DNA of 64,000 nucleotides, taken from Pseudomonadota bacterium (lineage in GTDB: Bacteria > Bdellovibrionota_G > JALEGL01 > DATDPG01). Position numbers and translations under genes: made by a program. Below are positions 23,157 through 57,496 of the stretch, piece by piece. Location: NCBI GenBank assembly GCA_043809315.1, contig JAZDDX010000038.1, positions 14,159-78,158 on the forward strand. The letters run 5' to 3'. Numbering within the stretch: position 1 is the stretch's first letter; each line of letters begins with the position of its first letter. The notes under the pieces are model-generated. The model was not told the origin of the DNA. It did no database searches and was given only the letters and a program-made list of their open reading frames with translations.

Positions 23157-23187
23157 AGTACAATGCCGCACCCGGACAAGAACCACG

Positions 23188-42043: not shown

Positions 42044-43522
42044 GTGGCGTTCGGGATCCAGCACGGGCGTGCGTGGTTTGCGATTGCGTTCCTCGCCACG
42101 GCTCTCTACCTGAACGGGATCTTTCACCCGTTTATCCGATACGACGACGGCTTGATCGTCCACAATCCGGCGATCTCCGGTTGGCTGAGCCTGTCCGGTA
42201 TTGCGCAAACCTTTTTCGACCTGTCGCTTCCGACGAGGACGGAGCACGGGGGAGAGTACCTTCCGGTGCGCGATCTCTCGGCGGCCCTGCAATCCCGGAT
42301 CTTCGGTGACCATCCCGCGCCGTACCACCTCGTCGCGATCCTCCTCTACGCTCTGGTAGCCATCACGCTCTTCGAAACGCTTCTCTCACTGTCCGTGGCT
42401 TTCGGAACCGCGTTTCTCGCGACCCTGCTCTTTACGGCACACCCGGTCCACGTCGAGTCGGTGACATGGCTTTCTGGGCACAAAGACCTCCTCTCGCTCC
42501 TCTTCTTCCTACTCTGCTTGAAGAGCTACGCCGACCGCCGGCCGGGACGGTCGATCGTCTCATACCTCCTCGGAATCGGATCCAAGTACACCACACTCGT
42601 CGCTCCCGTCTTCCTGCCTGCCGTGGACTGGTCCAAGAGGCGTCCTCTTTCCTGGCGACTTCTTTCGGTCATTCTTGTTCTGGGGATCGGCGTCTATCAA
42701 CTCATCGGTCATGTCGCCTCGAGTGTTTCGTACCCTCACCTCGCGATCACGGGGGGATGGTTGGACTGGCTGCGAAACCTTCCGGTGGTCCTGGACACGG
42801 CCTTTTCGCGGCTCTTGGTCCCTCTCCACCTTCGGCTTTTCTACACCTTCAAGCCTGCAGACCATTGGTTCGATCCCCGGTTTCTCCGCGGGACCGCTGA
42901 GTTTCTGCTTTTGCTCCTTCTGGCGGTCCGTTTTGGCCGCACTCTTTCCTGGCTTCCGTTCGCCGCAGGTCTGTTTCTTCTGAACCTCGCTCCGATGTTC
43001 CGGGCCCCCACCTACTGTTTCCTTGCAGATCGATATCTCCTTTTATCTTCCGTGGGATTCGTCCTGCTCTTGGCGGAGGGCTTACTTCGGATCCCATACC
43101 GGGCGACCCGGTTCTGCCTGATCGCCCTTTTCCTCGTCGGCTATTCCTTGGCTACGATTGCACAAAATCGAGTTTGGGCTTCCGACCAGGCGCTTTGGGA
43201 GAACGCCGCCCGTGCGGAGCCTCCGGTTCATCCGATCGTCTGGAACAACCTCGCGGCCATCTACTATCAGCAGGAGAACTGGGCCGGAGCCATAAGAGCC
43301 GACGAACACTGCTTGGCGTCCCTACCCCTCAAAGACCCTTCGCGCCTTCCGTTTCTCCTCTCTTCCGGCTACAGCCGTGCACGGCTTGGGGATTTCAAGG
43401 GAGCCGAACAGGACTATCTTGAGGCGCTGCAAATCGATCCCGGGAACACGGCCATAAAGAAGAACCTCCAAGCGGCGCGACGCTTCCTCGCCAAGAAGGG
43501 TAACCCCGGCGCGTCTCTCTAG
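42044..43522 (+). CDS. Polytopic membrane protein with C-terminal TPR repeats (TMTC/PMT-like GT-C family candidate)
   Basis: About 11 TM helices followed by TPR repeats (NLAAIYYQQENWAGAI...GAEQDYLEALQIDPGN). Confidence 0.5.
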   Translation: MAFGIQHGRAWFAIAFLATALYLNGIFHPFIRYDDGLIVHNPAISGWLSLSGIAQTFFDLSLPTRTEHGGEYLPVRDLSAALQSRIFGDHPAPYHLVAILLYALVAITLFETLLSLSVAFGTAFLATLLFTAHPVHVESVTWLSGHKDLLSLLFFLLCLKSYADRRPGRSIVSYLLGIGSKYTTLVAPVFLPAVDWSKRRPLSWRLLSVILVLGIGVYQLIGHVASSVSYPHLAITGGWLDWLRNLPVVLDTAFSRLLVPLHLRLFYTFKPADHWFDPRFLRGTAEFLLLLLLAVRFGRTLSWLPFAAGLFLLNLAPMFRAPTYCFLADRYLLLSSVGFVLLLAEGLLRIPYRATRFCLIALFLVGYSLATIAQNRVWASDQALWENAARAEPPVHPIVWNNLAAIYYQQENWAGAIRADEHCLASLPLKDPSRLPFLLSSGYSRARLGDFKGAEQDYLEALQIDPGNTAIKKNLQAARRFLAKKGNPGASL

Positions 43523-44391
43523 TTTCGGTTAGCCTTGGCCCACTTTAGTGCTGCGCGGATCGCCTGTTCCAAAGCCTTGCCCTTTGGATCCTTTTTCTGC
43601 AGCTCTCCCTCCCGCACCTCACAGTACGGCATCGTGAGATCGGGCCGGATCACACAAATCGTCGGGATGGCGGTCACGCCGAAATCTTTCCGGACATTTC
43701 CGGTGGCATCAAAGAGGAGCATCGAGTCGTCGTTGTCGGCTGCGTACTTCTTCGCCGTCTCCTCGGTGTCCCCTTCCCAGGGGGTCCAAAGCGAAAGAAA
43801 GACCACCTGTTTGGTTTCGGAGAATTTAGCTTCAACCTTTTTCAGGACCGGTGCCGCCGCCGTACAATCCGGACATTTCGGGTTCATGACCTCGAACACC
43901 ACCACATCGTAATCGGCCAGCAGATGACTCAACGGCCCGGTCTCCTCTCCGGCGGCGGTCTTGAAGCCGAGGTTGAGAGCCATCGAAGTGCAACGGATCG
44001 CCTTCGGTTTTTCCTCCCCCTTCAGGCAACAGGCCTTGGTGTTTTCGTCGGCGGAACACCCTTCCTCCTTCTTCTTGGCCGTGCAGATTTTTTTCAACGT
44101 CCAGGTTCCGTCCCTTGCGTGGATGAGAGTGAACTGATCCGCCGCGTCCTCTCCTTTGTAGGAAAGCGGGATCCCCCCTTTCTTGAGGTCCCACCATTGG
44201 TCCCAAGCCAAGGGGGTGGAGATCCGGCTGTTCGTCTCGGTGTAGCTCTCTTCCACGACGATCGCGGGCTGGCCCTCCTCCGCCGTCTTCAGGATTTCAA
44301 TCTTCGATATCTGGCCGGGAATCGGATCGGTGCAGGTCAAGAGAAGCTCGGCCGTACCGGCGAGCCCTCGGCCCGTTCCGAGAAGAATCAA
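43519..44391 (-). CDS. Thioredoxin-fold protein with CPDC motif (thiol-disulfide oxidoreductase-like)
   Basis: VVVFEVMNPKCPDCTAAAPVLKK gives a CxxC motif in a Trx-like context. Its stop overlaps the start of the upstream TMTC-like gene on the other strand. Confidence 0.45.
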   Translation of the reverse strand: MILLGTGRGLAGTAELLLTCTDPIPGQISKIEILKTAEEGQPAIVVEESYTETNSRISTPLAWDQWWDLKKGGIPLSYKGEDAADQFTLIHARDGTWTLKKICTAKKKEEGCSADENTKACCLKGEEKPKAIRCTSMALNLGFKTAAGEETGPLSHLLADYDVVVFEVMNPKCPDCTAAAPVLKKVEAKFSETKQVVFLSLWTPWEGDTEETAKKYAADNDDSMLLFDATGNVRKDFGVTAIPTICVIRPDLTMPYCEVREGELQKKDPKGKALEQAIRAALKWAKANRN

Positions 44392-44465
44392 CGCGAATTA
44401 ACGCAATGAGTCCTAACGAGATTCTTGTTTCGCGTCAAAGAAAAATGACCGGCCGGGAGTCGCGG

Positions 44466-46703
44466 CTACGGGATCTGACTTAAGCAGGGAAGGTCCGAGC
44501 GCGTGAACGACGTCAGGTATTTGGCGACCTGTCCGGCGAGCGTGGCGTTGACCGGAGAGAGTTGCAGGACATCGTTGAGTTCGAAACGCCGGTCCTGGTC
44601 GTAATCCGGGCGGTTATTGGCGGTTGGGTCACCGCAGAACGTGAACATCGAGGTTGAGCCGTACGGGTCCGGCCCTCCATAGGCACCGGTCTCGGCTGTA
44701 CAAGCGACCGCCGTTCCCGGTTTGAGGGTCGAGCAACGGTTCAATGCGGTTCCGCCCCCCGTCTTGGCCGGATTCGGCGTGGCGTGAAGAACGTAGGAGA
44801 CCGCCTGATCCCAGGCACTGCCGTTGTACGCCGTTCCGGTATCGGTCAGACCGTTCGTCCAGGAATAGGAGCAACGATATTCCGGCACGCCCTGCCGTGT
44901 GTCGTACGGAGCGTTACCGAACGTGAAGTTATACTGCAGATCGATTCGTGCGGCGGCCGGCAGAGGTGCTGTGCAGGAGGAGGAATCCCAAGCACTGCTG
45001 ACCCCGAAATCCCCCCCTTCGAAGATGTTGTCGGTGACGTACGCCCCCTCCCCCCAGGTGTACGAATAGATGTGCGCGACGAGAAGCTTGGCGTTCACGC
45101 CGGTCTTCACCATCTTGATCGAATTGTTGTGGATCAGGTTCTTGGTGCCGCTCCCCTCGCCGAGGAAGATCGCGGCGACCGGGATCCACCCGGTCGGTGA
45201 TCCTGAGACCTCACCCGCATCGACATAGATGATGTTATTCCGGACGACGGAGCGGGTCGATTGACGGCGGATCACGACGGCGTCGGAGTTGCTGTTCCCG
45301 CGCAGGACACCGTACAGAAAGTTCCTCTCGATGAGGCTTCCGCCGCCGCTGTCGACTTCGATCAGGTGATACGGCGCGGTGGTTCGGTTGGTGTGCGTGA
45401 TCGTGTTGCCGCGGATGACGGAGTAGGAGCCGCTCAGGACGTTCACGTACGAGTAGCCATCCGCCGTGGCGTTGGTGAAGTCGATGTTGTTGAACGTGTT
45501 CCCCTCGATCACGAACCCTTCATTGTAGCTCGCCGCCGAGGCGATTCCGTTCAGATAGACCGCGCTCTTGTTGACGGGCCACCCCGGCCCGGTCCCCGCA
45601 ATCGATCCGGTGAACCGGTTGTTCCGGATCACGATGCCGTAGGAGACCCCTTCCCCCGCAATCAAGTGCGGCGGGGTAACGGGAAGGGATCCGGCCCTCG
45701 TCCACGGGCCGCCGTTCTGGAGCGTCATCTTCTCGATGATCCAGTACGAGAGCCCCTCACCCAGGCCGAGAACCGCCTTTCCTCCGCCGTCGAGGATCAC
45801 CTCCCCCGGTCCGCCACCGCTAAGAACGATCGGAACCCCCAAAACACCGCTTCCGCAGGTCGACGGCGTGATCGCCACCGTGGAGGAGAGATTGTACGTA
45901 CCGGGTTGGATCACAATGACATCCCCCGGCACGAAGTGATTCTGGCAGAGATTCGCGAGCGAGGTCGCGTCGCTGATTTGAATTGTTCGGGCCCCGGCGA
46001 GGCCGGTCCAGACGGTGAGGAGGAGGCCCCAGATCCAAGCCGGCCCTCCGAGGCCCGAAGCTTTTCTTCGCAGGAGAAGAAGTCCGACTCCCGCGAACAG
46101 AAACCAGAAGAATGAGGTCGAGGCTAGATTCTGAGCGGCGGCACAACCCCCCAAGGCTGCGCCCGTGCGGTCCGTGGAGGCGTCTCCCGATCCGGGGTTG
46201 TTCGGATCGTTCGGATCCGGTGTCGGCGCGGTGACCGTTACGAGCGGCACCGGCGTCGGGACGTTCACGCTGACCGGCGCAGAGGTAGAGGTGGCGATGA
46301 TCCAACCGGTCGAGCCGAACATCTCGAGGATGTTCGGTTCGATCGTCACGCTGGAAGCTTTTGCCGGGGAGGCGACGGCATAGGTCACGCGCGCCAGCTC
46401 GTGGCCGGTTCCGCTCAAGCCTCCGGCGTTCGCCCAAACGATCCGGTTCGTTCCCGGCGCCCCGAAGAAGGGGGAGGCGGAAGCCGTACCTTGGGCCACG
46501 CTGACGACATGGAGAGCGGTGCTCGGATTGACGGTCATTTCAAGATAGGCTCCGGTCAGCGAGCCCAGGTCGAGATCGGCGATCACGGAGACCGTGAACT
46601 GGTCGTATCCGTTCAAGGTTCCGATGGGGACGTTCGTCAGACGGATCCCGGAGGCGAAGACGGCCGGAGCGAGGAAAACGATCAGGAGGGCGAGCCTATT
46701 CAT
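44466..46703 (-). CDS. Secreted right-handed parallel beta-helix repeat protein with N-terminal Ig-like region and an internal sorting-signal-like hydrophobic segment
   Basis: Signal peptide MNRLALLIVFLAPAVFASG and beta-helix repeats (NNIIYVDAGEVSG..., IHNNSIKMV). The start overlaps the upstream gene's end by 8 nt. Confidence 0.6.
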   Translation of the reverse strand: MNRLALLIVFLAPAVFASGIRLTNVPIGTLNGYDQFTVSVIADLDLGSLTGAYLEMTVNPSTALHVVSVAQGTASASPFFGAPGTNRIVWANAGGLSGTGHELARVTYAVASPAKASSVTIEPNILEMFGSTGWIIATSTSAPVSVNVPTPVPLVTVTAPTPDPNDPNNPGSGDASTDRTGAALGGCAAAQNLASTSFFWFLFAGVGLLLLRRKASGLGGPAWIWGLLLTVWTGLAGARTIQISDATSLANLCQNHFVPGDVIVIQPGTYNLSSTVAITPSTCGSGVLGVPIVLSGGGPGEVILDGGGKAVLGLGEGLSYWIIEKMTLQNGGPWTRAGSLPVTPPHLIAGEGVSYGIVIRNNRFTGSIAGTGPGWPVNKSAVYLNGIASAASYNEGFVIEGNTFNNIDFTNATADGYSYVNVLSGSYSVIRGNTITHTNRTTAPYHLIEVDSGGGSLIERNFLYGVLRGNSNSDAVVIRRQSTRSVVRNNIIYVDAGEVSGSPTGWIPVAAIFLGEGSGTKNLIHNNSIKMVKTGVNAKLLVAHIYSYTWGEGAYVTDNIFEGGDFGVSSAWDSSSCTAPLPAAARIDLQYNFTFGNAPYDTRQGVPEYRCSYSWTNGLTDTGTAYNGSAWDQAVSYVLHATPNPAKTGGGTALNRCSTLKPGTAVACTAETGAYGGPDPYGSTSMFTFCGDPTANNRPDYDQDRRFELNDVLQLSPVNATLAGQVAKYLTSFTRSDLPCLSQIP

Positions 46704-48345
46704 ACCGTTTGAACCTCGTGTCCTCGTCCGGTTTGACTTCGATCGTGTGGCCGGGGGGGACGATCTGTCCGCTCCCCAGGTATTGGAACTCCAGGCAGCC
46801 GGTGCGGAGAATTCCGTGATCCTCGTTGGTGGCATCGCGTGAGGCTTCGAGAATGTCGACGCAGACATTGTTGACGCCGGCCCGTCCGTCCGCCCCGGTC
46901 AGCGTCTGACCGAGGGAGATGTTGGAGACCGTGAAGCTGTAACACTGCCGGTGATCGTTGGTCAGGCCGGCGTCCTTGATGTCGTACTCGTAGGCCGTCG
47001 TCGGCCGGTTCGCCGGGTCAGTGGTCATCGGGAGCGTGTGCTGGATCACTTCGTCCCGGTTGTTCACGCCGTCCATGTCGGTGTCGATCAGGCTGTCGTC
47101 CACGTTCGGGCTCGTTCCCGCCGAAAACTCCATCCCGTCGGCTAACCCGTCCAGGTCCGAGTCGAACGAATACTCCTTCGTTCCCAGGAGGATCTCCTCG
47201 CAGTCGAGCAGGCCGTCCCCGTCCGCGTCCCCCTGTTTGTCCACCTCGCAGACACTGTCCCCTCTCACCAGGGGATCGGCGCCGATCGTGAGTTCCACGA
47301 AATCGTTCACGAGATCGCCATCGGTGTCCGGATTCCTGGGATCGATCCCCAACTCGACCTCCTGGTCGTCCGTGAGGCCGTCCCCGTCGCTGTCCAGAGA
47401 GATGGTTCCGTCCGCTTTGGCCACGACATTCTTGTTTCGAACGACCAGCGACTTGAGCAGGAAGGAGCGGACGAACGAGGCGAAGTCGAACGAGCGGAAC
47501 GTGACCTGACTTCCCGGGGTTCCGTCGAACTGGGCGAAAACGCCGTCGCCGATCTGGGCGAGATCGAGCATCAACTGTTGGGCGTCCTGGATCCGGGTGT
47601 TGGTCATGCTCGGATCACCGGTCATGAACGACGTGTTCACCGTGACATCGCCGAGATGGTACAGACGCTGGAGTTCTTTGATGTCCCGCGCCACCTGCTT
47701 GATGTCTCCGGGGAGTTCGTCGACCGCGATGCCGAGATTCGTGTCTCTCTGTTGTGGGAAGCCGTCGGAGAAGAGAATCACGACGTAGCGCAACCGGACC
47801 CGTTTGGCCGGCTCCACCTTCAGAAGATCCTGGAGAATCTGGCGCTTGGCCTCCTCCAAGGCGTTCTTCATCGGCGTTAAACCGACCGGGTTCTGCATCA
47901 GCCGGAAATAGCTGTCGCCCGATCCCTGGACGAACCCGTTGGTCGGGTGGGCCGGATCGTTTGTCGAGGCATTGGCCGGGAACTGGATCAGGGACAAGTA
48001 ATAGTTTTCGCTGTTTTGGTACCGCTCCCAGATGTCCCGCACCGCTCGTTGCCGCTGGTTCGTGCAGTCGACGCAGACGAAGTCGACCGGCTTCTTGGTG
48101 ACGCCGTCCGAATAGTAATCGGGATCGGTCTGATTCAGGGAGTCGGAGTTGTCCACGACGAAGAGGATCTTTACGGGGAAGTCGAGTTCGGTGGGGCTCG
48201 TCGTGCAGAACGACCCGGTGAATTCGACTTTGTTATCCTGGATCATCCGGTCGTTCTTGAGCTCTTTGAGCTGAGCATTGCTGCAGGCGACCGCAAGCGC
48301 GGAGAAAGCGACCGGTAAAACTACTCGCAGGTTCAGACGTCGCAT
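46696..48345 (-). CDS. VWA-domain lipoprotein with thrombospondin type-3-like calcium-binding repeats
   Basis: Lipobox LAVACSNAQ, MIDAS motif ILFVVDNSDSL and TSP3-like repeats DSDGDGLTDDQE, DTDGDLVND, DADGDGLLDCEE. Confidence 0.7.
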   Translation of the reverse strand: MRRLNLRVVLPVAFSALAVACSNAQLKELKNDRMIQDNKVEFTGSFCTTSPTELDFPVKILFVVDNSDSLNQTDPDYYSDGVTKKPVDFVCVDCTNQRQRAVRDIWERYQNSENYYLSLIQFPANASTNDPAHPTNGFVQGSGDSYFRLMQNPVGLTPMKNALEEAKRQILQDLLKVEPAKRVRLRYVVILFSDGFPQQRDTNLGIAVDELPGDIKQVARDIKELQRLYHLGDVTVNTSFMTGDPSMTNTRIQDAQQLMLDLAQIGDGVFAQFDGTPGSQVTFRSFDFASFVRSFLLKSLVVRNKNVVAKADGTISLDSDGDGLTDDQEVELGIDPRNPDTDGDLVNDFVELTIGADPLVRGDSVCEVDKQGDADGDGLLDCEEILLGTKEYSFDSDLDGLADGMEFSAGTSPNVDDSLIDTDMDGVNNRDEVIQHTLPMTTDPANRPTTAYEYDIKDAGLTNDHRQCYSFTVSNISLGQTLTGADGRAGVNNVCVDILEASRDATNEDHGILRTGCLEFQYLGSGQIVPPGHTIEVKPDEDTRFKRYE

Positions 48346-49940
48346 CAGAGCACCTCCCCGTCCAGCTCCGCTTTCAGACCGTCCGCGGGCTCTTTGTGAC
48401 CGGACCCGAGATAGCGGGCTTTGAAAACCTGCCGGTGCCAAGTCCCCAGATCCTCGGGAACGTCGCTCGGCGTCGTGCTGAAAAAGAGATGGATCTTGTT
48501 CTCCCCTTGCAGGAGCTCCAGCGCCGGGACCGGAAGAGTGATCCCGAGAGTGATGTTCTCGACCTTGTAGTCGAAGCATTCGCGCTGATCGAGCGTCATG
48601 CGGCGATTCGAAAACGTATATTTGTAGGCGTACGCGTTCCGTCCGGCGCCGTCCGCTTTGAACGGGTTGGTGTGTTCCGCGACCTCCTTGAGATTCGGGA
48701 CTCCGTCCCCGTCCGGATCCCCCTGGGCATCATCCCGGAGAGGATCGGTGCCGGCCCACAGTTCGATCCCGTCGGTCATTCCGTCCCCGTCGGTGTCGGG
48801 AAGTTCCCGGTTCGTCTTGAGGATATCCTCGTCGCAGTCGCTCAGCCCGTCCTTGTCGCTGTCGATCCCCGGCGTTAGGCAGCCGCAGTCGACCACCTTC
48901 GGGTCGAACCCGGCGATCCGCTCCGCCTTGTCGCTGCATCCGTCGTGATCGGAATCGGGATCCCGGGGGTTCAAGCCGGTCGATGCCTCTTCGTCATCGG
49001 GGATTCCGTCGCCGTCGCTGTCGAGTTGGGCGCCGTCCGGTTCGTTGTGGACGTGGTTGTCGGTGACGAAGAACGTCTTGAACCGTTCCACCGCGGCGAT
49101 CGAGGTCTGGATGAACTGGAGGAAGTTGAGTTGCGAAGCATTGGGGGCATTGACGTAATTGCCGTTTCCGCGCGCGGCGATCTGCGCAAGCAGATCGGTG
49201 GCGATGTTGTAGTCGTTGCTTCCGGTCGCCATCACCCCCTGGAGGAAGACGGAATGGATCCGGATCGAGCCGGCCCCGCCGTTCGCCGGATCCAGGAGGG
49301 ACATCACCTCCCCGACGCGGAGAAGGATGTTGACCGGCATCTCCTCCGGCTTGTCGATCACCGGCGGGTTCTGCCCGTCGGTATTCGGGATTCCGTCGGA
49401 GAAGAAGATGATCTCGTAACTCGTCCGCCGCGCGGTCCGGGGATCGAGATCCAGAAGATCGGCCCGGATCAGGTTGTACGCCTCCACGAACGCGGAATAC
49501 ATGTCGGTCGTGTTCTGCCCCTCGACCAACTGGCGCAGACAAGCGTTCATGTCCCCTTGAATGAACCAGGGTGCGGAGAGAGGGCAACGCCAAACGTTGG
49601 TGTTGAAATAGATGAAGCTGAACGAGTAGGCGGGGTCGGTCTGGAATGCTTGGACCACCGCGCGTGCCGCCCGCTGGCGATTGCTGACTCCGTCGACGGT
49701 CGGATCGTTCTCGGCGTTCAAGCTCCCCGATTGATCCATGATGAACAGGATCTTCTTCGGAAGGATCGTCGTCCCCGGCTTTGCCGTGCAGGCGGTCCCC
49801 TCGACGCTCATCCGGCTGTTCTCGAGAAGGGTCAGGTTCTCATTGACGAAGGGAACCAGCTCGGGGGAGCTGCAGGAGGAGAGAAACAGGAGTGCCACGG
49901 CATGCAACAGGAACACTCCTCTGTTTTCTCTCCCCCTCAC
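48345..49940 (-). CDS. VWA-domain lipoprotein with TSP3-like repeats (paralogue of 46696-48345)
   Basis: Lipobox LFLSSCSS, MIDAS ILFIMDQSGSL and repeats DSDGDGIPDDEE, DSDHDGCSDK, DTDGDGMTDGIE, DPDGDGVPN. Confidence 0.7.
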   Translation of the reverse strand: MRGRENRGVFLLHAVALLFLSSCSSPELVPFVNENLTLLENSRMSVEGTACTAKPGTTILPKKILFIMDQSGSLNAENDPTVDGVSNRQRAARAVVQAFQTDPAYSFSFIYFNTNVWRCPLSAPWFIQGDMNACLRQLVEGQNTTDMYSAFVEAYNLIRADLLDLDPRTARRTSYEIIFFSDGIPNTDGQNPPVIDKPEEMPVNILLRVGEVMSLLDPANGGAGSIRIHSVFLQGVMATGSNDYNIATDLLAQIAARGNGNYVNAPNASQLNFLQFIQTSIAAVERFKTFFVTDNHVHNEPDGAQLDSDGDGIPDDEEASTGLNPRDPDSDHDGCSDKAERIAGFDPKVVDCGCLTPGIDSDKDGLSDCDEDILKTNRELPDTDGDGMTDGIELWAGTDPLRDDAQGDPDGDGVPNLKEVAEHTNPFKADGAGRNAYAYKYTFSNRRMTLDQRECFDYKVENITLGITLPVPALELLQGENKIHLFFSTTPSDVPEDLGTWHRQVFKARYLGSGHKEPADGLKAELDGEVL

Positions 49941-49965
49941 CTTTGGTCCCCTCGTCGTCCGACGA

Positions 49966-51150
49966 TTACCGTTCTCTCCGGATCATCCCGATCGCCAAGA
50001 GCAGAAGTACGGCCATCGTGGCTGCGCTTCCGCCGGTGGTGGCACACCCCCCCGCCGACGCTTTCGCGGCGGAGAAGTCGATGTCCAGCGTGCTCACCGA
50101 CTCCGTCGTGTCGGGGAAGAGCGAATCGCCGTCCACGAGCGTCGACTTGACCAGCAGCTTGTGGATCCCCGTCGACGCGGCCTGGATCTTCGTGATCGAG
50201 GTCCCGAAGACCGGCAGGCTCGCGACAACGCCGGTATGCCCACCGACGTAATCGACAGCCGGGCTGACCGTGCTCTCGAACCGGATCGGGCCGCTCCGAT
50301 TGCAGAAGAGGAGGACGCCGTTCGGCTCCCCGGCTTTCGGCGTGTTGTGGTCCAGCCAGGTGTAGCACTTGAAGGCGAGCGTCGGATCCAGACAGCTCTC
50401 CAGGACCGGCCCATGGTCATCGAACTCCCAGACGAAACAGTTCCGGGAGCTGCAGGCGTCGCCGATCTGGTCCCGGTCGGTATCTTTCTGGTCGACGTTG
50501 ACGATGGTAGGACAATTGTCTCGGTTGTTCCCGATCCCGTCCCCGTCGGTGTCAGCGTCACACTCGTCCCCGATCCCGTCTCCGTCCACGTCGTGCTGGA
50601 GCGGATTGGCGATTTCCGGACAGATGTCTTTGTCGTCGGAAATCTTGTCGCCGTCCGTGTCCAAGCCGGCGTATTTCGACCGGTCCGGGTCGCACGCGTC
50701 GGCGATCCCGTCGCTGTCCATGTCGTGCTGGCTCGGGTTGTAGACGGTCGGACAGTTGTCCGATCCGTTCGCGATTCCGTCTTCATCGATATCGGGGTCG
50801 CAGGCATCGCCGATCCCGTCCACGTCGATGTCGGATTGGTCGGGGTTCGCCGTGCCCGAACAGTTGTCGCAGGCGCTACCGATCCCGTCCCCATCCGTGT
50901 CCTCTTGCGCCTGGTTCCGGAAGTACGGGCAGTTGTCGTTCCGATCGGCGATCCCGTCGAGGTCGATGTCGTCCTCGGGGAAGATGATCGGATCGTCGTC
51001 GGAGGCGCCACCGCCCCCGCCGCCTCCGGCACCGATCGGCGGGTTTCCGCACGGTCCGATGCACTCTTGGGCCGCAAAGGTGGCTTGGGTCGCCCACAAG
51101 GTCAACCCGGTGAAAATGGCGAGAAGGACTAGACATTTGGTTTTGTTCAT
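49966..51150 (-). CDS. Secreted thrombospondin type-3 repeat protein with C-terminal MYXO-CTERM/GlyGly-CTERM-type sorting signal
   Basis: Signal peptide and a Gly7 run, then at least eight DxDxDGxxDxxDNCP TSP3 repeats. The C-terminus is SAGGCATTGGSAATMAVLLLLAIGMIRRER. Confidence 0.7.
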   Translation of the reverse strand: MNKTKCLVLLAIFTGLTLWATQATFAAQECIGPCGNPPIGAGGGGGGGASDDDPIIFPEDDIDLDGIADRNDNCPYFRNQAQEDTDGDGIGSACDNCSGTANPDQSDIDVDGIGDACDPDIDEDGIANGSDNCPTVYNPSQHDMDSDGIADACDPDRSKYAGLDTDGDKISDDKDICPEIANPLQHDVDGDGIGDECDADTDGDGIGNNRDNCPTIVNVDQKDTDRDQIGDACSSRNCFVWEFDDHGPVLESCLDPTLAFKCYTWLDHNTPKAGEPNGVLLFCNRSGPIRFESTVSPAVDYVGGHTGVVASLPVFGTSITKIQAASTGIHKLLVKSTLVDGDSLFPDTTESVSTLDIDFSAAKASAGGCATTGGSAATMAVLLLLAIGMIRRER

Positions 51151-51160
51151 ATGACCCCCT

Positions 51161-53041
51161 TTAGAAGGTGGCGTTCTTGAACACGAATGGATACGAAACT
51201 AGGACGATGCCGCCGTCCCGCGGTTTCGGGAATTTCCAATCTCGGACTTCGCCAACGAGACACCTGTGAACGTTCGCGTTTTTCAACGTCGATGACCCGA
51301 TCCCGGTCGCGGTCACCAGACCAACGGAGGAGATGGACCATTTCAACACGACCTGGCCCCCGAGTTCCGGGTCGTCGAGCAAACTCTTTTCATAGCAGTA
51401 GCGGATCGCCGAAAGGTTCTCCTGAACGACCCGTGCGATCTCCTCCCTCGTCAAGCCTCCTTGGATCGAGACCGAGAGAGGGGGCGGATTGATGTCCACG
51501 ACATAGCCACTGACCTGACGGTCTTGCTTCGTGCCGACGCTCGCGTTGCCGAAGCCGTCCCCCTTGGGAGTTCCGCCGGCGAGTGCTTTGCTGGAGCTCA
51601 CGCTCGCGAGACGCACCTCCTTGCCCGGCATCGCCTTCAAGAGATTCCCGACCCGGAAGGTTTGAACTCCGCCGGCCGCCCGTACGGCGTCGAGATTCGA
51701 GGCGGCTGCGACGAGTCCCCGGGTCGACATCTTCGTCGGGGAGAAGAGACCGGTTCCGCCCAGTTTGCCAAGGGCGCCCACCTGCGAGAGGTCCGCGATC
51801 TTTCCCTCGGTCGGGCCGGCCCGGCGGGGGGAGGCCACTTGCTTCGCGACTTTGGTCGGGGCTTTCCGGGTCTCTTTCTTGGGTTTCTCTTTCGGCTCTT
51901 CGCGTTTGACCACCTTCTCCTCGACCGGCTCCGTGACCGCCGGTTTCTTGAGATCCTGAAGAGCGACATCCACGAACTTTTCGAGCTCGGCGCTCGGAAG
52001 CCGGGCCGCCCGGACGTCGGTGATCGGGGAGCTGAAGATGCTCAGAATCCCCACGACCACGATGTGAATCCAGGTGGCGGCGCCAAAGATGTTGACGGTC
52101 GTTTTGTCCACTTCCGTCTTCTGATGGCGGATCCGTAACGTTTCCGGGGTGTCGGGGTGGATCAGGTATTCGATCCCGTCGTAACGGACGACCAATGTTT
52201 CCGAAGTGAGAGGAAGCCATGAGGTCCGGCGTGATGGGCGGGATTCCGGTGCCACGGGGGAGAACTGATTGAAATCGGGGCCGGCGGCGACGTCGAGTTC
52301 GGGAATCGCCGCGACCTCCACCTTCCGGTCCCGGGTGATGCGCAGGATCGGCTTCCGGCCGTTCACTTCGCGCAACTGCCGGCCGGAGGTAAGCCAGGTC
52401 ACTTCGTGAATCAACTCCCCGCGGAGGCGGGTTACCTTGAACGCGACCGCGGCATGCGAGCGAGAAGCCTTGAGCGCCTGTTCGAAGACCCTCTCCCTCA
52501 CCGAATAAGCGGGGACCTGGTCCTCGGCGTCTTCCTCCTCGTCGTCGGACGGAAGCGGCAGGGTTTCCGACGAAACCTCCACGGCGGGCGGTTCCGGGTC
52601 GGCGACGACCTCTTCCGGCTTAAGCTCGTCGCCATGCTGGAGCACCTTCTCGATCTGGTCCCAATCCGGAATGGATTGGGCCTCTCGGTGCGTCGGTTCC
52701 TCGGCGGTCGGAAGAGAGGCTGCCGCATGAAATTCTTTTCCGTTGAGTGAGGGCCGGAACACCGTTCCGTTGATCGCGAACTCCTGCTCCTGCTTCAGGA
52801 TCGCCCGGTCCACAATCTGCCGGTCGACTCGGATCCCGGACGGGCGGGCCAAGGCGATGATCTCGAATTCATTCTCACGCGCGATCAGGATCGCGTGGCT
52901 GCGGTCGCCCGACGGATCCTCGATGACGAGGTCGTTTTCCGGCGCCTTCCCGATTCGGACGGTCCCGAGCTGGAACGACGCGAAATTCTCCGACCCGTCC
53001 TTGTGTCGCATGCGGATGATGATGTGGGGGGTTTCGGTCAT
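51161..53041 (-). CDS. FHA-domain / single-TM / Lys-Pro-rich linker / TonB-C-like (AgmX/PglI-type) C-terminal domain protein
   Basis: N-terminal FHA (FQLGTVRIGKAPENDLVIEDPSGDRSHAILI), a TM helix (IFGAATWIHIVVVGILSIF), a KPKKE-rich linker and a C-terminal GGIVLVSYPFVF end. Confidence 0.7.
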   Translation of the reverse strand: MTETPHIIIRMRHKDGSENFASFQLGTVRIGKAPENDLVIEDPSGDRSHAILIARENEFEIIALARPSGIRVDRQIVDRAILKQEQEFAINGTVFRPSLNGKEFHAAASLPTAEEPTHREAQSIPDWDQIEKVLQHGDELKPEEVVADPEPPAVEVSSETLPLPSDDEEEDAEDQVPAYSVRERVFEQALKASRSHAAVAFKVTRLRGELIHEVTWLTSGRQLREVNGRKPILRITRDRKVEVAAIPELDVAAGPDFNQFSPVAPESRPSRRTSWLPLTSETLVVRYDGIEYLIHPDTPETLRIRHQKTEVDKTTVNIFGAATWIHIVVVGILSIFSSPITDVRAARLPSAELEKFVDVALQDLKKPAVTEPVEEKVVKREEPKEKPKKETRKAPTKVAKQVASPRRAGPTEGKIADLSQVGALGKLGGTGLFSPTKMSTRGLVAAASNLDAVRAAGGVQTFRVGNLLKAMPGKEVRLASVSSSKALAGGTPKGDGFGNASVGTKQDRQVSGYVVDINPPPLSVSIQGGLTREEIARVVQENLSAIRYCYEKSLLDDPELGGQVVLKWSISSVGLVTATGIGSSTLKNANVHRCLVGEVRDWKFPKPRDGGIVLVSYPFVFKNATF

Positions 53042-53048
53042 CGCGTCC

Positions 53049-53282
53049 TTACTTGAACATCGTCTCCAGGATTTCCTTGCGATAGTCCTTCCGCTGCGTC
53101 GTCAGGTCCTTCTGGGTGAGACTCCCCCGGTCGAAGACGTAGACGGCGTCCGCCTTCTTCGTCTGGCCATGCACGACCAGCTCATCGAAATTCACGCGGG
53201 TCTTCCTGCCAGTCTCCGCCAGCGCGCTCCAAGGGAGAAACGCCGCAATCAACGCCAGGAGAACGATTCGTCGCGCGTTCAT
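53049..53282 (-). CDS. Small secreted/periplasmic hypothetical protein
   Basis: Signal peptide MNARRIVLLALIAAFLPWSALAE. ATGA overlap with the upstream exbD. Confidence 0.45.
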   Translation of the reverse strand: MNARRIVLLALIAAFLPWSALAETGRKTRVNFDELVVHGQTKKADAVYVFDRGSLTQKDLTTQRKDYRKEILETMFK

Positions 53283-53788
53283 ACTTCCCTCCGGAAAACC
53301 GCCAGGCGACATTTGGGGTAGCCGGCCATGCCGGCCGATTTGAGGACCATGTCGATCAGGCGGTACGGCGTCCGCTTGTCCGCCTGCAGGAGGACGATCG
53401 TGTCCTCTTCCTTGAGCGTGATCCCCGCTTTCTTCACGCGGAACGCCGTGATCGCCTTGTGGCGTCGGAGTTCCTCGTACAGCGGCTGGATCCTGTTTCC
53501 CTGGACCTTGGTGTTCACGATCCGTCCGTCTCGGATCGTCGCGACCACCTTGTCGTCGATCGAGATCGAATCCAGGCTGATGATGATCCCCGGCGCTTCC
53601 CGGAAGCGGACCTGCGAGCTCGAGTACGGAAGCTCGAGCTCCTTTTGGAGCTTGAGCGTCTGCTCGTCCGGAACCATATGATAGAGCAGGAAGACGAGGA
53701 TGATCGTGAACATGTCCATCATGGACGTGAGCATGACCTTCGCTTCCGGAGCCCGCCGGACCGAGCCGCCAAAACCGCGCCCGAGCAT
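53279..53788 (-). CDS. Biopolymer transport protein ExbD/TolR
   Basis: Single N-terminal TM (MMDMFTIILVFLLY) plus a periplasmic ExbD fold. Confidence 0.8.
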   Translation of the reverse strand: MLGRGFGGSVRRAPEAKVMLTSMMDMFTIILVFLLYHMVPDEQTLKLQKELELPYSSSQVRFREAPGIIISLDSISIDDKVVATIRDGRIVNTKVQGNRIQPLYEELRRHKAITAFRVKKAGITLKEEDTIVLLQADKRTPYRLIDMVLKSAGMAGYPKCRLAVFRREV

Positions 53789-54330
53789 CAGCCGTTCTCC
53801 TTCACGAGGCTCGAGAGAACCACCTCGGGGTAAAGGGTTTTCCGCTCCGCGGCGCCGGTCGGAAGAACCTGCGTGTCCGGAAGCCAGCGGGTGGCGTCCA
53901 TCGTGGTGACGATCTCCTCGTACGGGATCTCGTTGTCCGGGACGAGGATGACCGTCTTCCCGCGCGGAAAACGGTTTTTGACCATGGTGAGCGCCTGGGT
54001 CAGGCCCTTCGTGTCGAAACTGCCGCCCCGTTTCGGGATGTTGTTCCGGACGGAGGCGACTTCGGCTGCCGTGACGTTATCGCCGTTCCCCATGATGTGG
54101 TACCCCTGGTCGTCCATCTGGAGGATCACGTTCATCACCTTCTCCGACTGATCCGGCCCGACCGGCGCCTCGTCCGAGATCGTCGGGACCGAGGCGTTGA
54201 TGATGCTGATCTGGTAGAACGCGGTGCACATCAGAAGGAACGGGATCATCGCCACGAACAGGTTCATGACGGGGGTGAGGTTCACTTCCGCATCCGGGGA
54301 GGCGCGTCCCTTGAGGTTGCCGAAAAGCAC
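53788..54330 (-). CDS. Biopolymer transport protein ExbD/TolR (second paralogue)
   Basis: NLTPVMNLFVAMIPFLLMC TM, then an ExbD periplasmic domain. Confidence 0.8.
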   Translation of the reverse strand: MLFGNLKGRASPDAEVNLTPVMNLFVAMIPFLLMCTAFYQISIINASVPTISDEAPVGPDQSEKVMNVILQMDDQGYHIMGNGDNVTAAEVASVRNNIPKRGGSFDTKGLTQALTMVKNRFPRGKTVILVPDNEIPYEEIVTTMDATRWLPDTQVLPTGAAERKTLYPEVVLSSLVKENG

Positions 54331-55013
54331 TACGACCTCCGGCCCTGCTCCGTTCCCGCGACCCGTTTCAGGGTGGCGGTGCGCGATTCACGATTCGAGG
54401 CCGACACGACGTTCATGACCTGGTTCGCCCCGAACTGGATCGAGTCGAGGATCAGGTTCTGCCGGTTGACCAGCATGTAGTAGGCAACCAGGCAGGGGAT
54501 GGCGACCACAAGACCGAAGAAGGTGGTGAACATCGCGACCGCGATTCCTTTCGCCAGGATCTCTTGTTTCAAAGCCGCATCCGCCGCGGTGACGCCGCGG
54601 AATGCCATGATCAAACCCTGGATCGTCCCCAGAAGCCCCAAGAGAGTCGAGACGTTGGCTAGCATCGAGAGGGCCCCGGTCCGTTTCTGGATCACCGGAG
54701 CCGCTTCGAGGTAGGCCCCCTCCATGGCGCCTTGGATCTCTTTGTCGCCGCGGTTCCCCTTCAGGAGGCCCGCGCTCAAAACTTTCGCCAGCGGGTGGTA
54801 GAGGTACTGGTTGCAGTAGTCGAGAGCGCGCTGCACATGCCCCCCCTCCACCGCGTGCGCGATCTTGGAGACGAACTCCTTGGAATTCAGGCGGAGTTTG
54901 AAGAAGAGGAAGAACGCCCGCTCCACGGTGATCGCCAGGCCGATGATCGAGCAAAGGAGGATTGGGTACATGAAGAAGCCACCCTGGTTCAAAATCTGAA
55001 AGTACTTGGACAT
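54330..55013 (-). CDS. MotA/TolQ/ExbB proton-channel protein
   Basis: 3-TM MotA_ExbB core (LGTIQGLIMAF...LSMLANVSTLLGLLGTI). ATG at 55013. Confidence 0.85.
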   Translation of the reverse strand: MSKYFQILNQGGFFMYPILLCSIIGLAITVERAFFLFFKLRLNSKEFVSKIAHAVEGGHVQRALDYCNQYLYHPLAKVLSAGLLKGNRGDKEIQGAMEGAYLEAAPVIQKRTGALSMLANVSTLLGLLGTIQGLIMAFRGVTAADAALKQEILAKGIAVAMFTTFFGLVVAIPCLVAYYMLVNRQNLILDSIQFGANQVMNVVSASNRESRTATLKRVAGTEQGRRS

Positions 55014-55127
55014 GCCGCTCTCCTTGGAAAAGGTGTATTCGGGGCTAGTTGTGCAACGACGGTGCCAGGACAAAAGGTCAGCAATACCCATACTTAGAAA
55101 CGGGTCCCGCCTGCCGAGAATCGATCC

Positions 55128-55171
55128 GGTTCGAACCTTTTTGCGTAGCGGTTCGAACCTTTTTGCGTAGC
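55128..55171. repeat. Two tandem 22-bp units GGTTCGAACCTTTTTGCGTAGC, each containing the perfect 10-bp palindrome GGTTCGAACC
   Basis: Exact tandem duplication in the 115-bp leader upstream of tolQ. A further half-site CCGGTTCGAACC immediately precedes unit 1. Confidence 0.6.
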
Positions 55172-55174
55172 GGA

Positions 55175-57495: not shown

Positions 57496-57496
57496 G

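Follow-up and report, generated by a model that had tools for sequence, protein, structure and literature searches.

The window analyzed here is a 64,000-nucleotide stretch of DNA. Ten minus-strand open reading frames were all found at the positions given by a sequence-only reading of this DNA. The bounds of that reading (43519-55013) were exact, running from the stop of a thioredoxin-like open reading frame (43519) to the tolQ ATG (55013), which is preceded by a Shine-Dalgarno site (AAGGAGAG). The system extends further: it also includes two conserved lipoprotein genes on the minus strand (55175-56853) and, on the plus strand (56872-62238), a divergent unit encoding a barrel, a GltC-like protein and a GltD-like protein. 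The genes and elements are as follows.

43519-44391, minus: thioredoxin-like protein with a CPDC motif, 290 aa, TTG start (Pfam matches all just below threshold)
44466-46703, minus: two-part protein (g9), 745 aa (weak Pfam Beta_helix match)
46696-48345, minus: MtsD-like lipoprotein 2, 549 aa (NCBIfam MtsD, 9.8e-49, below cutoff)
48345-49940, minus: MtsD-like lipoprotein 1, 531 aa (NCBIfam MtsD, 1.8e-41, below cutoff)
49966-51150, minus: MtsC-like protein, 394 aa (Pfam TSP_3, 9e-39; NCBIfam MtsC; TIGR03382)
51161-53041, minus: GltG-like transducer, 626 aa (Pfam FHA; NCBIfam myxo_SS_tail)
53049-53282, minus: GltF/CglF-like small secreted protein with a signal peptide, 77 aa (NCBIfam CglF)
53279-53788, minus: ExbD/TolR-like paralogue 2, 169 aa (Pfam ExbD, 6.6e-13)
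53788-54330, minus: ExbD/TolR-like paralogue 1, 180 aa (Pfam ExbD, 1.9e-12)
54330-55013, minus: TolQ/ExbB/AglR-like proton channel subunit, 227 aa (Pfam MotA_ExbB, 2.4e-23)
55052-55067, minus: sigma-54 -24/-12 element, perfect TGGCAC-N5-TTGCA, ending 38 nt upstream of the tolQ ATG
55130-55173, minus: exact 22-bp tandem direct repeat, two copies of CCGCTACGCAAAAAGGTTCGAA, 63-106 nt upstream of the sigma-54 element
55175-55672, minus: small lipoprotein upstream of tolQ, 165 aa (lipobox FGGC)
55648-56853, minus: lipoprotein, 401 aa (weak BNR/beta-propeller signal)
56872-57495, plus: GltA/GltB-family outer-membrane beta-barrel, 207 aa (NCBIfam TIGR04565, OMP_myx_plus)
57497-58957, plus: GltC-like TPR protein (NCBIfam GltC, 2.7e-23, 82.6 bits against a cutoff of 450)
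58945-62238, plus: GltD-like long TPR protein with a signal or anchor sequence, 1097 aa (TPR families)

The ten genes had been described as packed with overlaps or gaps of at most 25 nt. This held for eight of the nine junctions, from tolQ through g9 (-1, -1, -4, 7, 10, 25, -1 and -8 nt, the first being the overlap of the exbD1 start with tolQ), and failed for the last, a 74-nt gap preceding the thioredoxin gene. The conserved set of eight genes from tolQ to mtsD2 has four start/stop overlaps, and a fifth reaches g9. Terminator-like matches did not exceed the background level. In the window, the motor and adhesin genes are packed together and, as judged from the sequence, are fused into one operon.

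The sigma-54 motif with at most one mismatch occurred six times, compared with 0.78 expected. Two matches were exact, each upstream of a gene in this cluster. The one preceding tolQ is likely the promoter of a transcription unit from tolQ to mtsD2 (and g9), and the other, at 56873-56888, precedes the 401-aa lipoprotein gene. The 22-bp repeat, present in two exact copies where shuffles predicted none, is a candidate site for an enhancer-binding protein. The sole sigma-54-like match near mtsD1 in the window is mismatched at the GC of the -12 box. In related loci, sigma-54-like elements were placed before mtsC or mtsD1, suggesting that Mts modules are normally transcribed as separate units.

The TolQ-like protein contains hydrophobic segments. 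In the alignment, ExbD1 has Asn in place of the transmembrane Asp (VMNLF), and this Asn is kept in the orthologues of L023, L031, L041, L053, L064, L071, L072 and L081; ExbD2 retains the Asp (MMDMF). The TolQ, TolR, ExbB and ExbD equivalog scores were all far under their cutoffs. The GltF-like protein matched CglF below threshold (2.4e-7, 30.7 bits; cutoff 90), and tblastn located homologues between exbD2 and gltG, or adjoining gltG, in 19 and 27 related loci. In the GltG-like protein, a cytoplasmic FHA domain is connected through a single transmembrane helix (residues 314-343) and a linker rich in Lys, Pro and Glu to an AgmX/PglI (TonB-C-like) domain at the C-terminus. This last domain scored 103 bits with myxo_SS_tail, above the cutoff of 40, and the protein scored 137 bits with NCBIfam GltG (8e-40; cutoff 650). 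Its C-terminus gave weak TonB C-terminal domain signals, but a low-confidence model (pLDDT 50; Foldseek E-values of at least 0.2) did not confirm a TonB-like fold.

The MtsC-like protein has a signal peptide, at least five calcium-binding repeats of TSP type 3 and a C-terminal domain, followed by a tail of MYXO-CTERM type (GGC-TM-RRER). The tail scored above its cutoff (TIGR03382, 18.2 bits against 15.85), and the match to NCBIfam MtsC reached 282 bits (7.5e-84; cutoff 350). Both MtsD-like proteins carry a lipobox, a VWA domain and TSP3 (TSP3_bac) repeats; MtsD1 has the MIDAS DQSGS...T...D and a C-terminal beta domain, and MtsD2 has the MIDAS DNSDS...T...D and a C-terminal beta sandwich. Pfam VWA_2 was below threshold in one and gave no match in the other, so the VWA call is based on the full DxSxS...T...D motif, intact with the lipobox in both paralogues (alignment A1), and on the AF2 model of MtsD2. 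This model (pLDDT 83.8) adopts a VWA fold, and its best Foldseek PDB matches were the VWA adhesins SpaC, ITIH1 and MIC2, the last an apicomplexan gliding adhesin. The window adhesins are closer to the cohesion proteins MtsC and MtsD than to CglD, whose matches span the TSP3 repeats only. All equivalog-level NCBIfam scores were below cutoff, and orthology with the M. xanthus proteins is therefore not established.

Profile searches gave no family match for the 165-aa lipoprotein; weak tblastn homologues were present in six related Mts loci. The 401-aa lipoprotein had tblastn matches in 17 related loci and recurs inside Mts modules. The barrel, divergent from the tolQ operon in the window, scored 106.5 bits with TIGR04565 (cutoff 60) and is syntenic with GltG in related loci. 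The GltC-like protein also has syntenic homologues there. Its open reading frame spans 57821-58957 from a canonical start; the frame is open further upstream, where it encodes a lipoprotein signal (RFLLLATLFAISGC) and contains no ATG, GTG or TTG. The GltD-like protein gave tblastn matches of up to 542 bits, adjoining GltC-like genes in related loci.

The earlier domain calls hold in general, with several scores below threshold, except for the "beta-helix protein", which has two parts. It comprises a signal peptide, a domain of about 170 aa, GGC-TM-RRK, a second signal-like helix with an AxA site, and a right-handed beta-helix (20.7 bits, under the 25.9 threshold). A homologue in L083, 55% identical and of the same architecture, follows the MtsD2 homologue. 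Only seven g9 clusters were found among 1.84 billion representatives and no homologue in 159 related loci scanned. By these searches, g9 is a lineage-specific accessory gene and not a conserved part. No related locus scanned contained a homologue of the thioredoxin-like gene, whose operon membership is uncertain. Both genes had been counted as parts of the system; the former is confined to close relatives and the latter is absent from related loci.

The architecture had been regarded as unmatched. By sequence, however, the cluster is a member of the Agl-Glt/Nfs family, known from Myxococcota, rather than an orphan: its motor, GltF and GltG form a core of the known Agl-Glt/Nfs "core complex" family (PMC3169522), and its TSP3/VWA proteins match MtsC and MtsD, named Myxococcus proteins of cell-cell cohesion. 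The cluster shares with Agl-Glt/Nfs a TolQ-like channel, two TolR/ExbD paralogues, GltF-like and GltG-like proteins, a GltA/B-type barrel and GltC/GltD-like TPR proteins. Family membership bears out the idea of an envelope-spanning, proton-motive-force-coupled machine. In M. xanthus, AglR binds GltG, and a 2011 study described the Glt paralogue cluster G5 (MXAN_1327-1331) as having no known function (PMC3169522). Cells with a polar insertion in MXAN_1327 showed no defect in motility, and G5, the paralogue class to which we liken the cluster, is dispensable for gliding (PMC3169522). MtsC (MXAN_1334) lies three locus tags from G5. It is tied to cohesion, S-motility and development (PMC12475490; PMC11980579), and mts is cited as important for S-motility (PMC12475490).

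We scanned 185,579 species genomes for MtsD and obtained 79 loci. Glt-like or motor genes were present in the fetched DNA of 39 of these. Where flanks of at least 6 kb were available on both sides, 12 of 22 loci contained such genes and 10 did not; 12 is a lower bound because Mts modules are about 8 kb long. In a GltG-anchored scan of metagenomes, 10 of the 13 loci that had GltF and at least 7 kb of upstream DNA carried MtsC and/or MtsD, compared with only one of nine loci without GltF. At least three arrangements preserve the linkage (Mts-motor-GltFG-barrel-GltCD, all on one strand; Mts divergent from GltFG...; MtsC-motor-GltFG...), which argues for function rather than inertia. The gap between gltG and mtsC is 10 nt in the window, and mtsC probably also lies 10 nt after its upstream gene in the P0127 contig.

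The Mts/Glt-like linkage is therefore recurrent and reciprocal but not universal. Homologous clusters without VWA/TSP3 genes, named in the sequence-only reading as evidence against its proposal, do exist in part, since more distant and some close clusters lack these genes nearby. L099 and L131 have GltF-GltG-barrel clusters with no Mts genes in the 8-10 kb upstream, and the type A loci, the closest relatives of the window motor, have an MtsC-like gene only, with no MtsD nearby. Conversely, L003 (686-kb contig) has no Glt-like genes within 10 kb of its Mts module, which adjoins a Pel9A-like beta-helix gene. The reciprocal co-occurrence in several gene orders supports the proposal of VWA/TSP3 proteins as surface cargo, as does the precedent of Agl-Glt. 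There, the VWA lipoprotein CglB, loaded in GltABH/K, becomes unmasked at focal adhesions (PMC9946355; PMC11761067), and CglD is a calcium-dependent TSP3 and VWA lipoprotein (bioRxiv 10.1101/2023.10.19.562135). From these data we infer a physical or functional coupling of motor and adhesins.

We give somewhat better than even chances to a complete Agl-Glt/Nfs-type machine of the G5 paralogue class, located beside mts, that presents or activates integrin-like adhesins, likely for cohesion. The sigma-54 promoter would drive tolQ-exbD1-exbD2-gltF-gltG-mtsC-mtsD1-mtsD2 and probably g9, as suggested by the element and the tight spacing. TolQ-like subunits and the ExbD pair, of which ExbD2 alone keeps the protonatable Asp, would form an inner-membrane motor, possibly a 5:2 heteromeric assembly as in AglR5QS models. 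The GltG-like transmembrane helix would dock on this motor, with its long charged linker spanning the periplasm, and the TonB-C-like domain and the GltF-like protein would engage a GltD/GltC-like TPR scaffold below the GltA/B-type barrel, by analogy with Agl-Glt two-hybrid data and structural models. The output may act on the MIDAS-bearing MtsD-like outer-membrane lipoproteins and the MtsC-like protein, which would be exposed, activated or moved, much as CglB is unmasked and CglD stabilizes adhesion in gliding. By analogy with mts mutants, the physiological output is likely calcium-dependent cell-cell or cell-matrix cohesion, not gliding. This relationship offers a testable function for G5, the Glt-family branch of reportedly unknown role.

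An unlikely alternative, although the one we take most seriously, is that two independent neighbors lie side by side: a Glt-like core with other cargo or another role, and an Mts adhesin locus without mechanical coupling to it. Export of the Mts proteins would then rely on Lol and on T2SS with myxosortase, and the linkage would reflect neighborhood or shared control, for instance by a common sigma-54 activator. MYXO-CTERM proteins do reach the surface through T2SS and myxosortase, which suffice for their sorting with no Glt system involved (PMC11980579). The Mts modules and Glt-like clusters found apart from each other, the sigma-54-like elements before mtsC or mtsD1 in related loci and the normal motility of the MXAN_1327 mutant also favor independence. 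However, the linkage is enriched as well as reciprocal across rearranged gene orders, mtsC closely follows gltG behind an exact sigma-54 element upstream of tolQ, and the proven Agl-Glt machine employs adhesins with exactly these domain types (PMC9946355; 10.1101/2023.10.19.562135). We regard as improbable a true gliding apparatus of this uncultured lineage, in which a minimal Agl-Glt would use the MtsD VWA lipoproteins as substratum adhesins in the CglB/CglD role. The core parts are the same, the VWA fold resembles that of MIC2, and Bdellovibrio glides with expanded core complexes without GltH-K (PMC3169522). Nevertheless, the scanned cluster ORFs include no homologue of GltH, GltI, GltJ, GltK, AglZ or CglB, the GltG score is far under the equivalog cutoff, the adhesins match MtsC/MtsD better than CglD, and the G5 paralogue is dispensable for gliding.

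The right-handed beta-helix gene next after mtsD2, the Pel9A-like gene in L003 and the transport of spore-coat polymer by Agl-Nfs (PMC3858216) are consistent with a motor that moves or organizes surface polysaccharide, with TSP3/VWA proteins binding the polymer in a calcium-dependent way and the beta-helix protein cleaving it as a lyase or otherwise modifying it. We consider this quite improbable, as the beta-helix gene is lineage-specific with a sub-threshold Pfam match, and the cluster contains no polysaccharide synthesis or export genes. Least credible, at a very slim chance, is atypical TonB-dependent uptake or a Tol-Pal-like envelope-integrity system. It would account for the homology to TolQ/ExbB and ExbD/TolR, the TonB-C-like tail and the near-cutoff match of the GltD-like protein to the YbgF/CpoB-like TPR model (tol_pal_ybgF, 89.6 bits; cutoff 90.1). 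The cluster and the neighboring ORFs scanned, however, contained no TolA, TolB, Pal or TonB-dependent receptor, in agreement with the earlier view that the cluster is neither Tol-Pal nor classical TonB; the equivalog scores speak against it as well. The cytoplasmic FHA domain on the transducer, a hallmark of GltG, further speaks against this reading.

We found ten open reading frames on the minus strand between 43519 and 55013, with the gene content that the sequence-only reading had described. Start codons were picked by Shine-Dalgarno sites and signal peptides. The junctions from tolQ to the thioredoxin gene measured −1, −1, −4, +7, +10, +25, −1, −8, and +74 nt. Thus, the proposed packing (overlaps or gaps of 25 nt or less) holds for eight junctions and fails at the last gene. 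The motor genes tolQ, exbD1, and exbD2 are adjacent and overlapping. Terminator-like matches in the window were no more frequent than background. Pfam and NCBIfam supported the proposed domains, except that the beta-helix and thioredoxin assignments were sub-threshold. The proposed extent of the operon was essentially right but too narrow, as a divergent unit of barrel, GltC-like, and GltD-like genes lies outside it, and it included two non-conserved genes.

Features of the locus, with NCBIfam scores given in bits against the model cut-off.
54330-55013, minus strand: tolQ-like gene (Pfam MotA_ExbB, 2.4e-23)
53788-54330, minus strand: exbD1 (Pfam ExbD, 1.9e-12)
53279-53788, minus strand: exbD2 (Pfam ExbD, 6.6e-13)
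53049-53282, minus strand: GltF/CglF-like secreted protein of 77 aa (NF033764, 30.7 against 90)
51161-53041, minus strand: GltG-like protein with FHA, TM, and TonB-C-like parts (FHA, 1.6e-6; NF033768, 103 against 40)
49966-51150, minus strand: MtsC-like TSP_3 protein with a GGC-TM-RRER tail (five TSP_3 repeats, 9e-39; NF047638; TIGR03382 above cut-off)
48345-49940, minus strand: MtsD-like lipoprotein 1, mtsD1 (NF047639; MIDAS motif in the alignment)
46696-48345, minus strand: MtsD-like lipoprotein 2, mtsD2, locus tag V1495_10565 (NF047639; MIDAS; AF2 model)
44466-46703, minus strand: g9, two-part protein of 745 aa (beta-helix assignment below threshold)
43519-44391, minus strand: CPDC thioredoxin-like protein (weak domain assignment, below threshold)
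55175-56853, minus strand: two lipoprotein genes that separate tolQ from the divergent unit (each with homologues in related Mts modules)
56872-57495, plus strand: GltA/GltB-family outer-membrane barrel (TIGR04565, 106.5 against 60)
First canonical start TTG 57821, plus strand: GltC-like TPR protein (GltC model, 82.6 against 450)
Divergent unit upstream of tolQ, plus strand: GltD-like TPR protein of 1097 aa (TPR; syntenic tblastn homologues)

The motor proteins scored far under the equivalog cut-offs for TolQ (61 against 221) and TolR (18 against 127). The membrane Asp is universally conserved in ExbD/TolR. In our alignments, ExbD2 retains this transmembrane Asp; ExbD1 carries Asn instead, as do eight ExbD1 orthologues. 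Vulgatibacter-type motors, aligned in the same way, have Asp in both subunits. AglQ and AglS of the gliding machine are both reported to retain the Asp (PMC9389320, citing Sun 2011); the motor in the window differs from the gliding machine in this respect. AglR5QS has been modelled as a 5:2 motor (PMC11761067). Should the two paralogues pair as the heterodimeric plug of such a motor, as in the AglR5QS models, the stator would have a single protonatable site. Replacement of Asp by Asn, conserved as it is in one stator subunit, would bear on the working of heteromeric 5:2 motors.

The GltG-like protein has the GltG-type architecture: FHA, a single TM helix (residues 314-343), a Pro/Lys-rich linker (here KPEK-rich), and an AgmX/PglI C-terminal domain. 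Its GltG equivalog score was 137 bits against a cut-off of 650. PDB profile matches of the C-terminal domain were weak (E 0.04-0.6), and its AF2 model, built from an alignment with only two sequences, had a pLDDT of 50. A Foldseek search with this low-confidence model returned TonB as the top match (E 0.2), together with the C-terminal domains of HasB, TolA, and FusB (E 0.2-4), which are only suggestive of a TonB-like fold. A word-indexed homologue search with the GltG-like protein yielded only 4 proteins, and a look-up of contigs by its exact sequence gave no match. The full-length GltG alignment was too divergent for a collection scan; the C-terminal alignment was used instead.

The GltF-like protein has the position and size expected of GltF, and tblastn homologues occur at the same position in related loci. 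Only one barrel gene is present, and it belongs to the GltA/GltB family. The GltD-like protein gave tblastn matches of up to 542 bits in related Glt-like loci, in synteny. The GltE model matched the tail of this 1097-aa protein with 21.7 bits, and no separate GltE gene was identified in the cluster. Since GltF- and GltG-like genes occur with the divergent barrel, GltC-like, and GltD-like genes (cf. Luciano 2011, PMC3169522), the locus is, as predicted from gene content, a full Agl-Glt/Nfs-type machine whose adhesin genes are fused behind the motor and transducer genes. The frame of the GltC-like gene is open for a further 324 nt (57497-57820, plus strand) upstream of its TTG. This stretch encodes a lipoprotein signal peptide (RFLLLATLFAISGC) and contains no ATG, GTG, or TTG; the alternatives are a non-canonical start codon, such as ATC at 57497, or a base error.

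We aligned 32 proteins of the MtsD family. The family conserves the lipobox Cys, a VWA domain with intact MIDAS, four to five DxDxDG-type TSP3 repeats, and a Cys-containing C-terminal beta domain. The two paralogues in the window carry the MIDAS sequences DNSDS and DQSGS, with the conserved Thr and Asp present. The AF2 model of MtsD2 (pLDDT 83.8) showed a Rossmann-like VWA fold, and Foldseek matched it to the SpaC pilus adhesin, ITIH1, Toxoplasma MIC2, RGLG1, and complement C2a/factor B (E 2e-5 to 1e-3). The modelled VWA fold and the complete MIDAS motif (DxSxS...T...D) are those of integrin-I-like adhesins. The adhesins of Agl-Glt that have been studied by experiment consist of the same modules. 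One of them, the MIDAS-VWA lipoprotein CglB, is retained by GltABH/K and becomes unmasked where focal adhesions form (PMC9946355; PMC11761067); the other, CglD, is a TSP3 (COMP-like) and VWA lipoprotein required for calcium-dependent gliding (10.1101/2023.10.19.562135). The scores against the MtsD equivalog NF047639 were 142 and 166 bits, with a cut-off of 800, the matches covered only the TSP3 and C-terminal halves, and identity to MtsD-family proteins was only 30-38%. The MtsD-like proteins are classed, by these scores, as family-level relatives of MtsD and not as equivalogs. MtsC scored 282 bits against the NF047638 cut-off of 350, and its TSP repeats and MYXO-CTERM tail features are present. 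Its homologue search was dominated by TSP3 proteins, and M. xanthus MtsC was not among the best 120.

The gene g9, which follows mtsD2, encodes a signal peptide, a domain of about 170 aa, and a GGC-TM-RRK segment; a further signal-like helix, which terminates in AxA, precedes the beta-helix. The product has the look of two joined secreted proteins. No NCBIfam model matched the internal MYXO-CTERM-like segment. A homologue with 55% identity and the same architecture follows the MtsD2 homologue in a relative (L083, 1429-3708), and the family comprises only 7 clusters in a set of 1.84 billion representatives. Tests for an assembly artefact or two-gene fusion were negative: g9 is a real single frame, because no in-frame start codon lies at the junction and the architecture recurs in L083 and the few family members. 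Neither g9 nor the thioredoxin gene had a homologue in any of the 159 related loci. We treated g9 as a lineage-specific accessory gene; the operon membership of the thioredoxin gene is uncertain.

To survey the linkage of these genes, we scanned one genome for each of 185,579 species with the MtsD alignment. The 368 relatives included a best 80 that came nearly all from MAGs labelled Myxococcota, Myxococcales, or 'Deltaproteobacteria'. By tblastn, and as borne out by called genes, a module recurred that consists of MtsC, MtsD, MtsD, a gene of about 700 aa, a lipoprotein in some loci, and a third MtsD-like gene. The ~700-aa gene and the third MtsD-like gene are conserved in the other modules, whereas the window is without both and has the two-part beta-helix gene in their place; g9 is not homologous to the ~700-aa gene. 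Glt-like or motor genes were present in the fetched DNA of 39 of the 79 MtsD-anchored loci. The same linkage was seen in 12 of the 22 loci with at least 6 kb of flank on both sides, which is a lower bound because the Mts module alone spans about 8 kb. Two placements of the Glt-like genes were seen, one divergent and one downstream on the same strand ([TolQ-ExbD-ExbD]-GltF-GltG-barrel-GltC-GltD).

In the reverse direction, metagenome contigs were scanned with the GltG C-terminal domain, and 80 loci were kept. MtsC and/or MtsD occurred in 10 of the 13 loci in which a GltF-like gene was present and the DNA upstream of GltG reached at least 7 kb, and in only one of nine GltF-less, core-complex-like loci. 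The core complex of Gammaproteobacteria and Geobacter (aglRQS-gltCDEG homologues; Luciano 2011) shares with the window a motor, a GltG-like transducer, and TPR proteins in one region; it differs in being without GltF and the GltA/B barrel, and its function is reported as unknown. The closest relatives of the motor in the window have the order MtsC-TolQ-ExbD-ExbD-GltF-GltG-barrel-GltC-GltD on one strand. The order in the window, with mtsC, mtsD1, and mtsD2 after gltG and the outer-membrane/TPR unit inverted, was absent from the other 159 loci; a 4.5-kb contig of a 60%-identical relative is a probable exception. The linkage has outlasted repeated rearrangement, which argues for a functional tie. 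The sequence-only reading had held that homologous clusters lacking the VWA/TSP3 genes would speak against it; as the linkage is recurrent and not universal, they do so in part.

In front of tolQ, a perfect sigma-54 element (TGGCAC-N5-TTGCA) ends 38 nt before the ATG, and an exact 22-bp tandem repeat is located 63-106 nt upstream of this element. The window contained 6 sigma-54 matches with at most one mismatch, compared to 0.78 expected. In related loci from Myxococcota MAGs (L003-L081), sigma-54-like −24/−12 elements with at most one mismatch clustered in the interval 30-150 nt in front of mtsC or mtsD1. This interval held about 29 of the 47 matches in 1.36 Mb, for example at 6622-6637 in L021, 4777-4792 in L036, and 6725-6740 in L050. 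Because of this clustering, the Mts module appears from sequence to be under sigma-54 control across the family, and in the window the control seems to have moved to the front of the motor genes. That position fits a single predicted transcription unit of the motor and mtsC-mtsD genes.

A second perfect element (56873-56888, minus strand) lies upstream of a 401-aa lipoprotein gene (start 56853) and within the first codons of the divergent barrel. The divergent starts at 56853 (minus strand) and 56872 (plus strand) are 18 nt apart, so that coding sequence must extend into their promoters. If the lipoprotein instead starts at GTG 56889, the element is coding. The match at 49882-49897, at the 5′ end of mtsD1, was taken as non-functional, as its −12 GC is mismatched and it falls inside signal-peptide codons. 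An element with one mismatch (AGGCACCGAAGTTGCA) is located at 15988-16003 (minus strand), directly upstream of the frame 15001-15972, which is without a family match.

We somewhat favor a reading in which the TolQ/ExbD1/ExbD2 motor, driven by the proton motive force, would act through the GltG-like transducer. The transducer, GltF, and the TPR scaffold would transmit to the outer-membrane barrel, at which the MtsD VWA/TSP3 lipoproteins and the MtsC surface protein would be presented or activated, resulting in calcium-dependent cohesion. The parts, motifs, operon structure, and linkage are observed; their assembly, the transmission of force, and the phenotype would follow by analogy with Agl-Glt and mts. 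An envelope-spanning, energy-coupled surface machine, as initially suggested, was right in kind; its family is already known, and the model organism M. xanthus has a homologous arrangement.

That arrangement is the Glt paralogue cluster G5 together with the mts locus. MXAN_1327-1331 (G5) are paralogous to GltD, GltC, the G2-cluster outer-membrane protein MXAN_2539, GltG, and GltF (Luciano 2011, Table S3; PMC3169522). The 2011 paper gave the functions of the paralogues G4, G5, and M2 as unknown and the motility of a polar MXAN_1327 mutant as normal (PMC3169522); our literature search found no later paper assigning a function to any of the three. MtsC is MXAN_1334 (PMC12475490), and mts is cited as acting in cell-cell cohesion, S-motility, and development, which mutants would lose (PMC11980579; PMC12475490). 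From the locus-tag numbering, which places mts within three genes of G5, we infer that the two adjoin in M. xanthus. The literature search found no paper connecting G5 with mts and no mechanism described for mts. Going by published locus tags and families, the window shares with G5 and mts a set of GltD-like, GltC-like, single barrel, FHA GltG-like, and GltF-like genes beside MtsC- and MtsD-type proteins, and this type of linkage recurs in many Myxococcota MAGs. They differ in that mtsC, mtsD1, and mtsD2 follow gltG in the window, and that its motor is in the operon, whereas no motor gene is listed with G5 and the locus tag of the Agl-like motor M2 (MXAN_3003-5) is a distant one.

The main rival would have the Mts locus adjoin the motor system, or be co-regulated with it, without mechanical coupling. 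We consider this a possible but rather doubtful explanation: the normal motility of the MXAN_1327 mutant and the incomplete linkage would suit it, and the persistence of the linkage through rearrangement speaks for the cohesion machine. A gliding apparatus is unlikely, despite the many parts shared with Agl-Glt, namely the TolQ-like channel with two TolR-like paralogues (counterparts of AglR, AglQ, and AglS), the GltG-type transducer, the GltF-like protein, the GltA/B barrel, the GltC/GltD-like TPR proteins, and surface lipoproteins that combine a MIDAS-bearing VWA domain with calcium-binding repeats of the TSP3 (COMP-like) type. The domain order is VWA, TSP3, and beta domain in the MtsD proteins, whereas it is TSP3, EGF-like repeats, and VWA in CglD. 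In addition, Agl-Glt has GltA plus GltB barrels compared to one barrel gene here, and its motor, G1, G2, cglB, and cglD are at separate M. xanthus loci, whereas the adhesin genes in the window are in the motor operon. No NCBIfam or Pfam match to GltH, GltI, GltJ, GltK, AglZ, or CglB was found in the cluster and flanking frames, other than GltJ matches to a shared C-terminal domain.

Handling of a polymer, as by the Agl-Nfs spore-coat system, is quite improbable. Agl-Nfs is likewise a Glt-paralogous envelope complex in a single cluster, coupled to a TolQR-type motor via the GltG paralogue NfsG, but NfsA-H are without VWA/TSP3 adhesin genes, the AglRQS motor is borrowed, and the cargo is polysaccharide. 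Least likely by far is a TonB or Tol-Pal system. TonB-ExbBD and Tol-Pal have in common with the window the 5:2-type stator family driven by the proton motive force and a transducer that spans the periplasm, its C-terminal domain being TonB/TolA-like (putatively so in the window), whereas the window has two different ExbD paralogues, a cytoplasmic FHA domain in the transducer, and barrel and TPR scaffold partners. Frames of the cluster and flanks gave no match to TonB_C (PF03544) or a TonB-dependent receptor, and TolA, TolB, Pal, and CpoB were not detected there, the ybgF model matching only the 1097-aa TPR protein (89.6 against 90.1). Both readings were set aside, as no partner genes were detected in these frames.

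To our knowledge, Agl-Glt is the only bacterial machine shown to act like a eukaryotic focal adhesion. As an extension of the cohesion reading, we tentatively suggest that the G5-type Glt class, with many Myxococcota relatives, may be a dedicated machine driven by the proton motive force that loads, exposes, or tensions integrin-like MtsC/MtsD for calcium-dependent cell-cell cohesion. It would be a second 'bacterial focal adhesion', for cohesion and not gliding, and the window would contain its most explicit form, with one sigma-54 operon and an asymmetric stator with one Asp. The window and the reciprocal survey of 159 related loci lead us to propose that one class of Glt paralogues has a concrete cargo and the Mts adhesins a power source. 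If true, integrin-like adhesion coupled to a motor would serve Myxococcota generally, as a modular strategy used both in gliding and in multicellular cohesion.

The Glt-like genes, the MYXO-CTERM-type tail, MtsC/MtsD, and sigma-54 use point to Myxococcota or a related 'deltaproteobacterial' lineage, and away from the NCBI label 'Pseudomonadota bacterium'. For the motor, the nearest homologues come from MAGs that carry the label Thermodesulfobacteriota or just 'bacterium'. Elsewhere in the window, a 2025-aa protein with RHS and FG-GAP repeats (7925-14880, minus strand) is preceded by a SpvB-domain frame, and the two together resemble a locus for a Tc toxin or an RHS polymorphic toxin. Also encoded are a GH18 chitinase-like protein, which is secreted and has an Ig-like domain (27583-29898, plus strand), and a Peptidase_C25 (gingipain-type) protease with a propeptide (30832-33501, plus strand). 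A GatE-like protein of 768 aa with a GatB_N catalytic domain (23011-25317, plus strand) adjoins GatD, which has GatD_N and asparaginase domains (25230-26720, plus strand). This pair is an archaeal-type Glu-tRNA(Gln) amidotransferase in a bacterial MAG, and tRNA-Gln and tRNA-Glu genes (20193-20266, minus strand, and 20375-20449, plus strand) are located a few kb from it.
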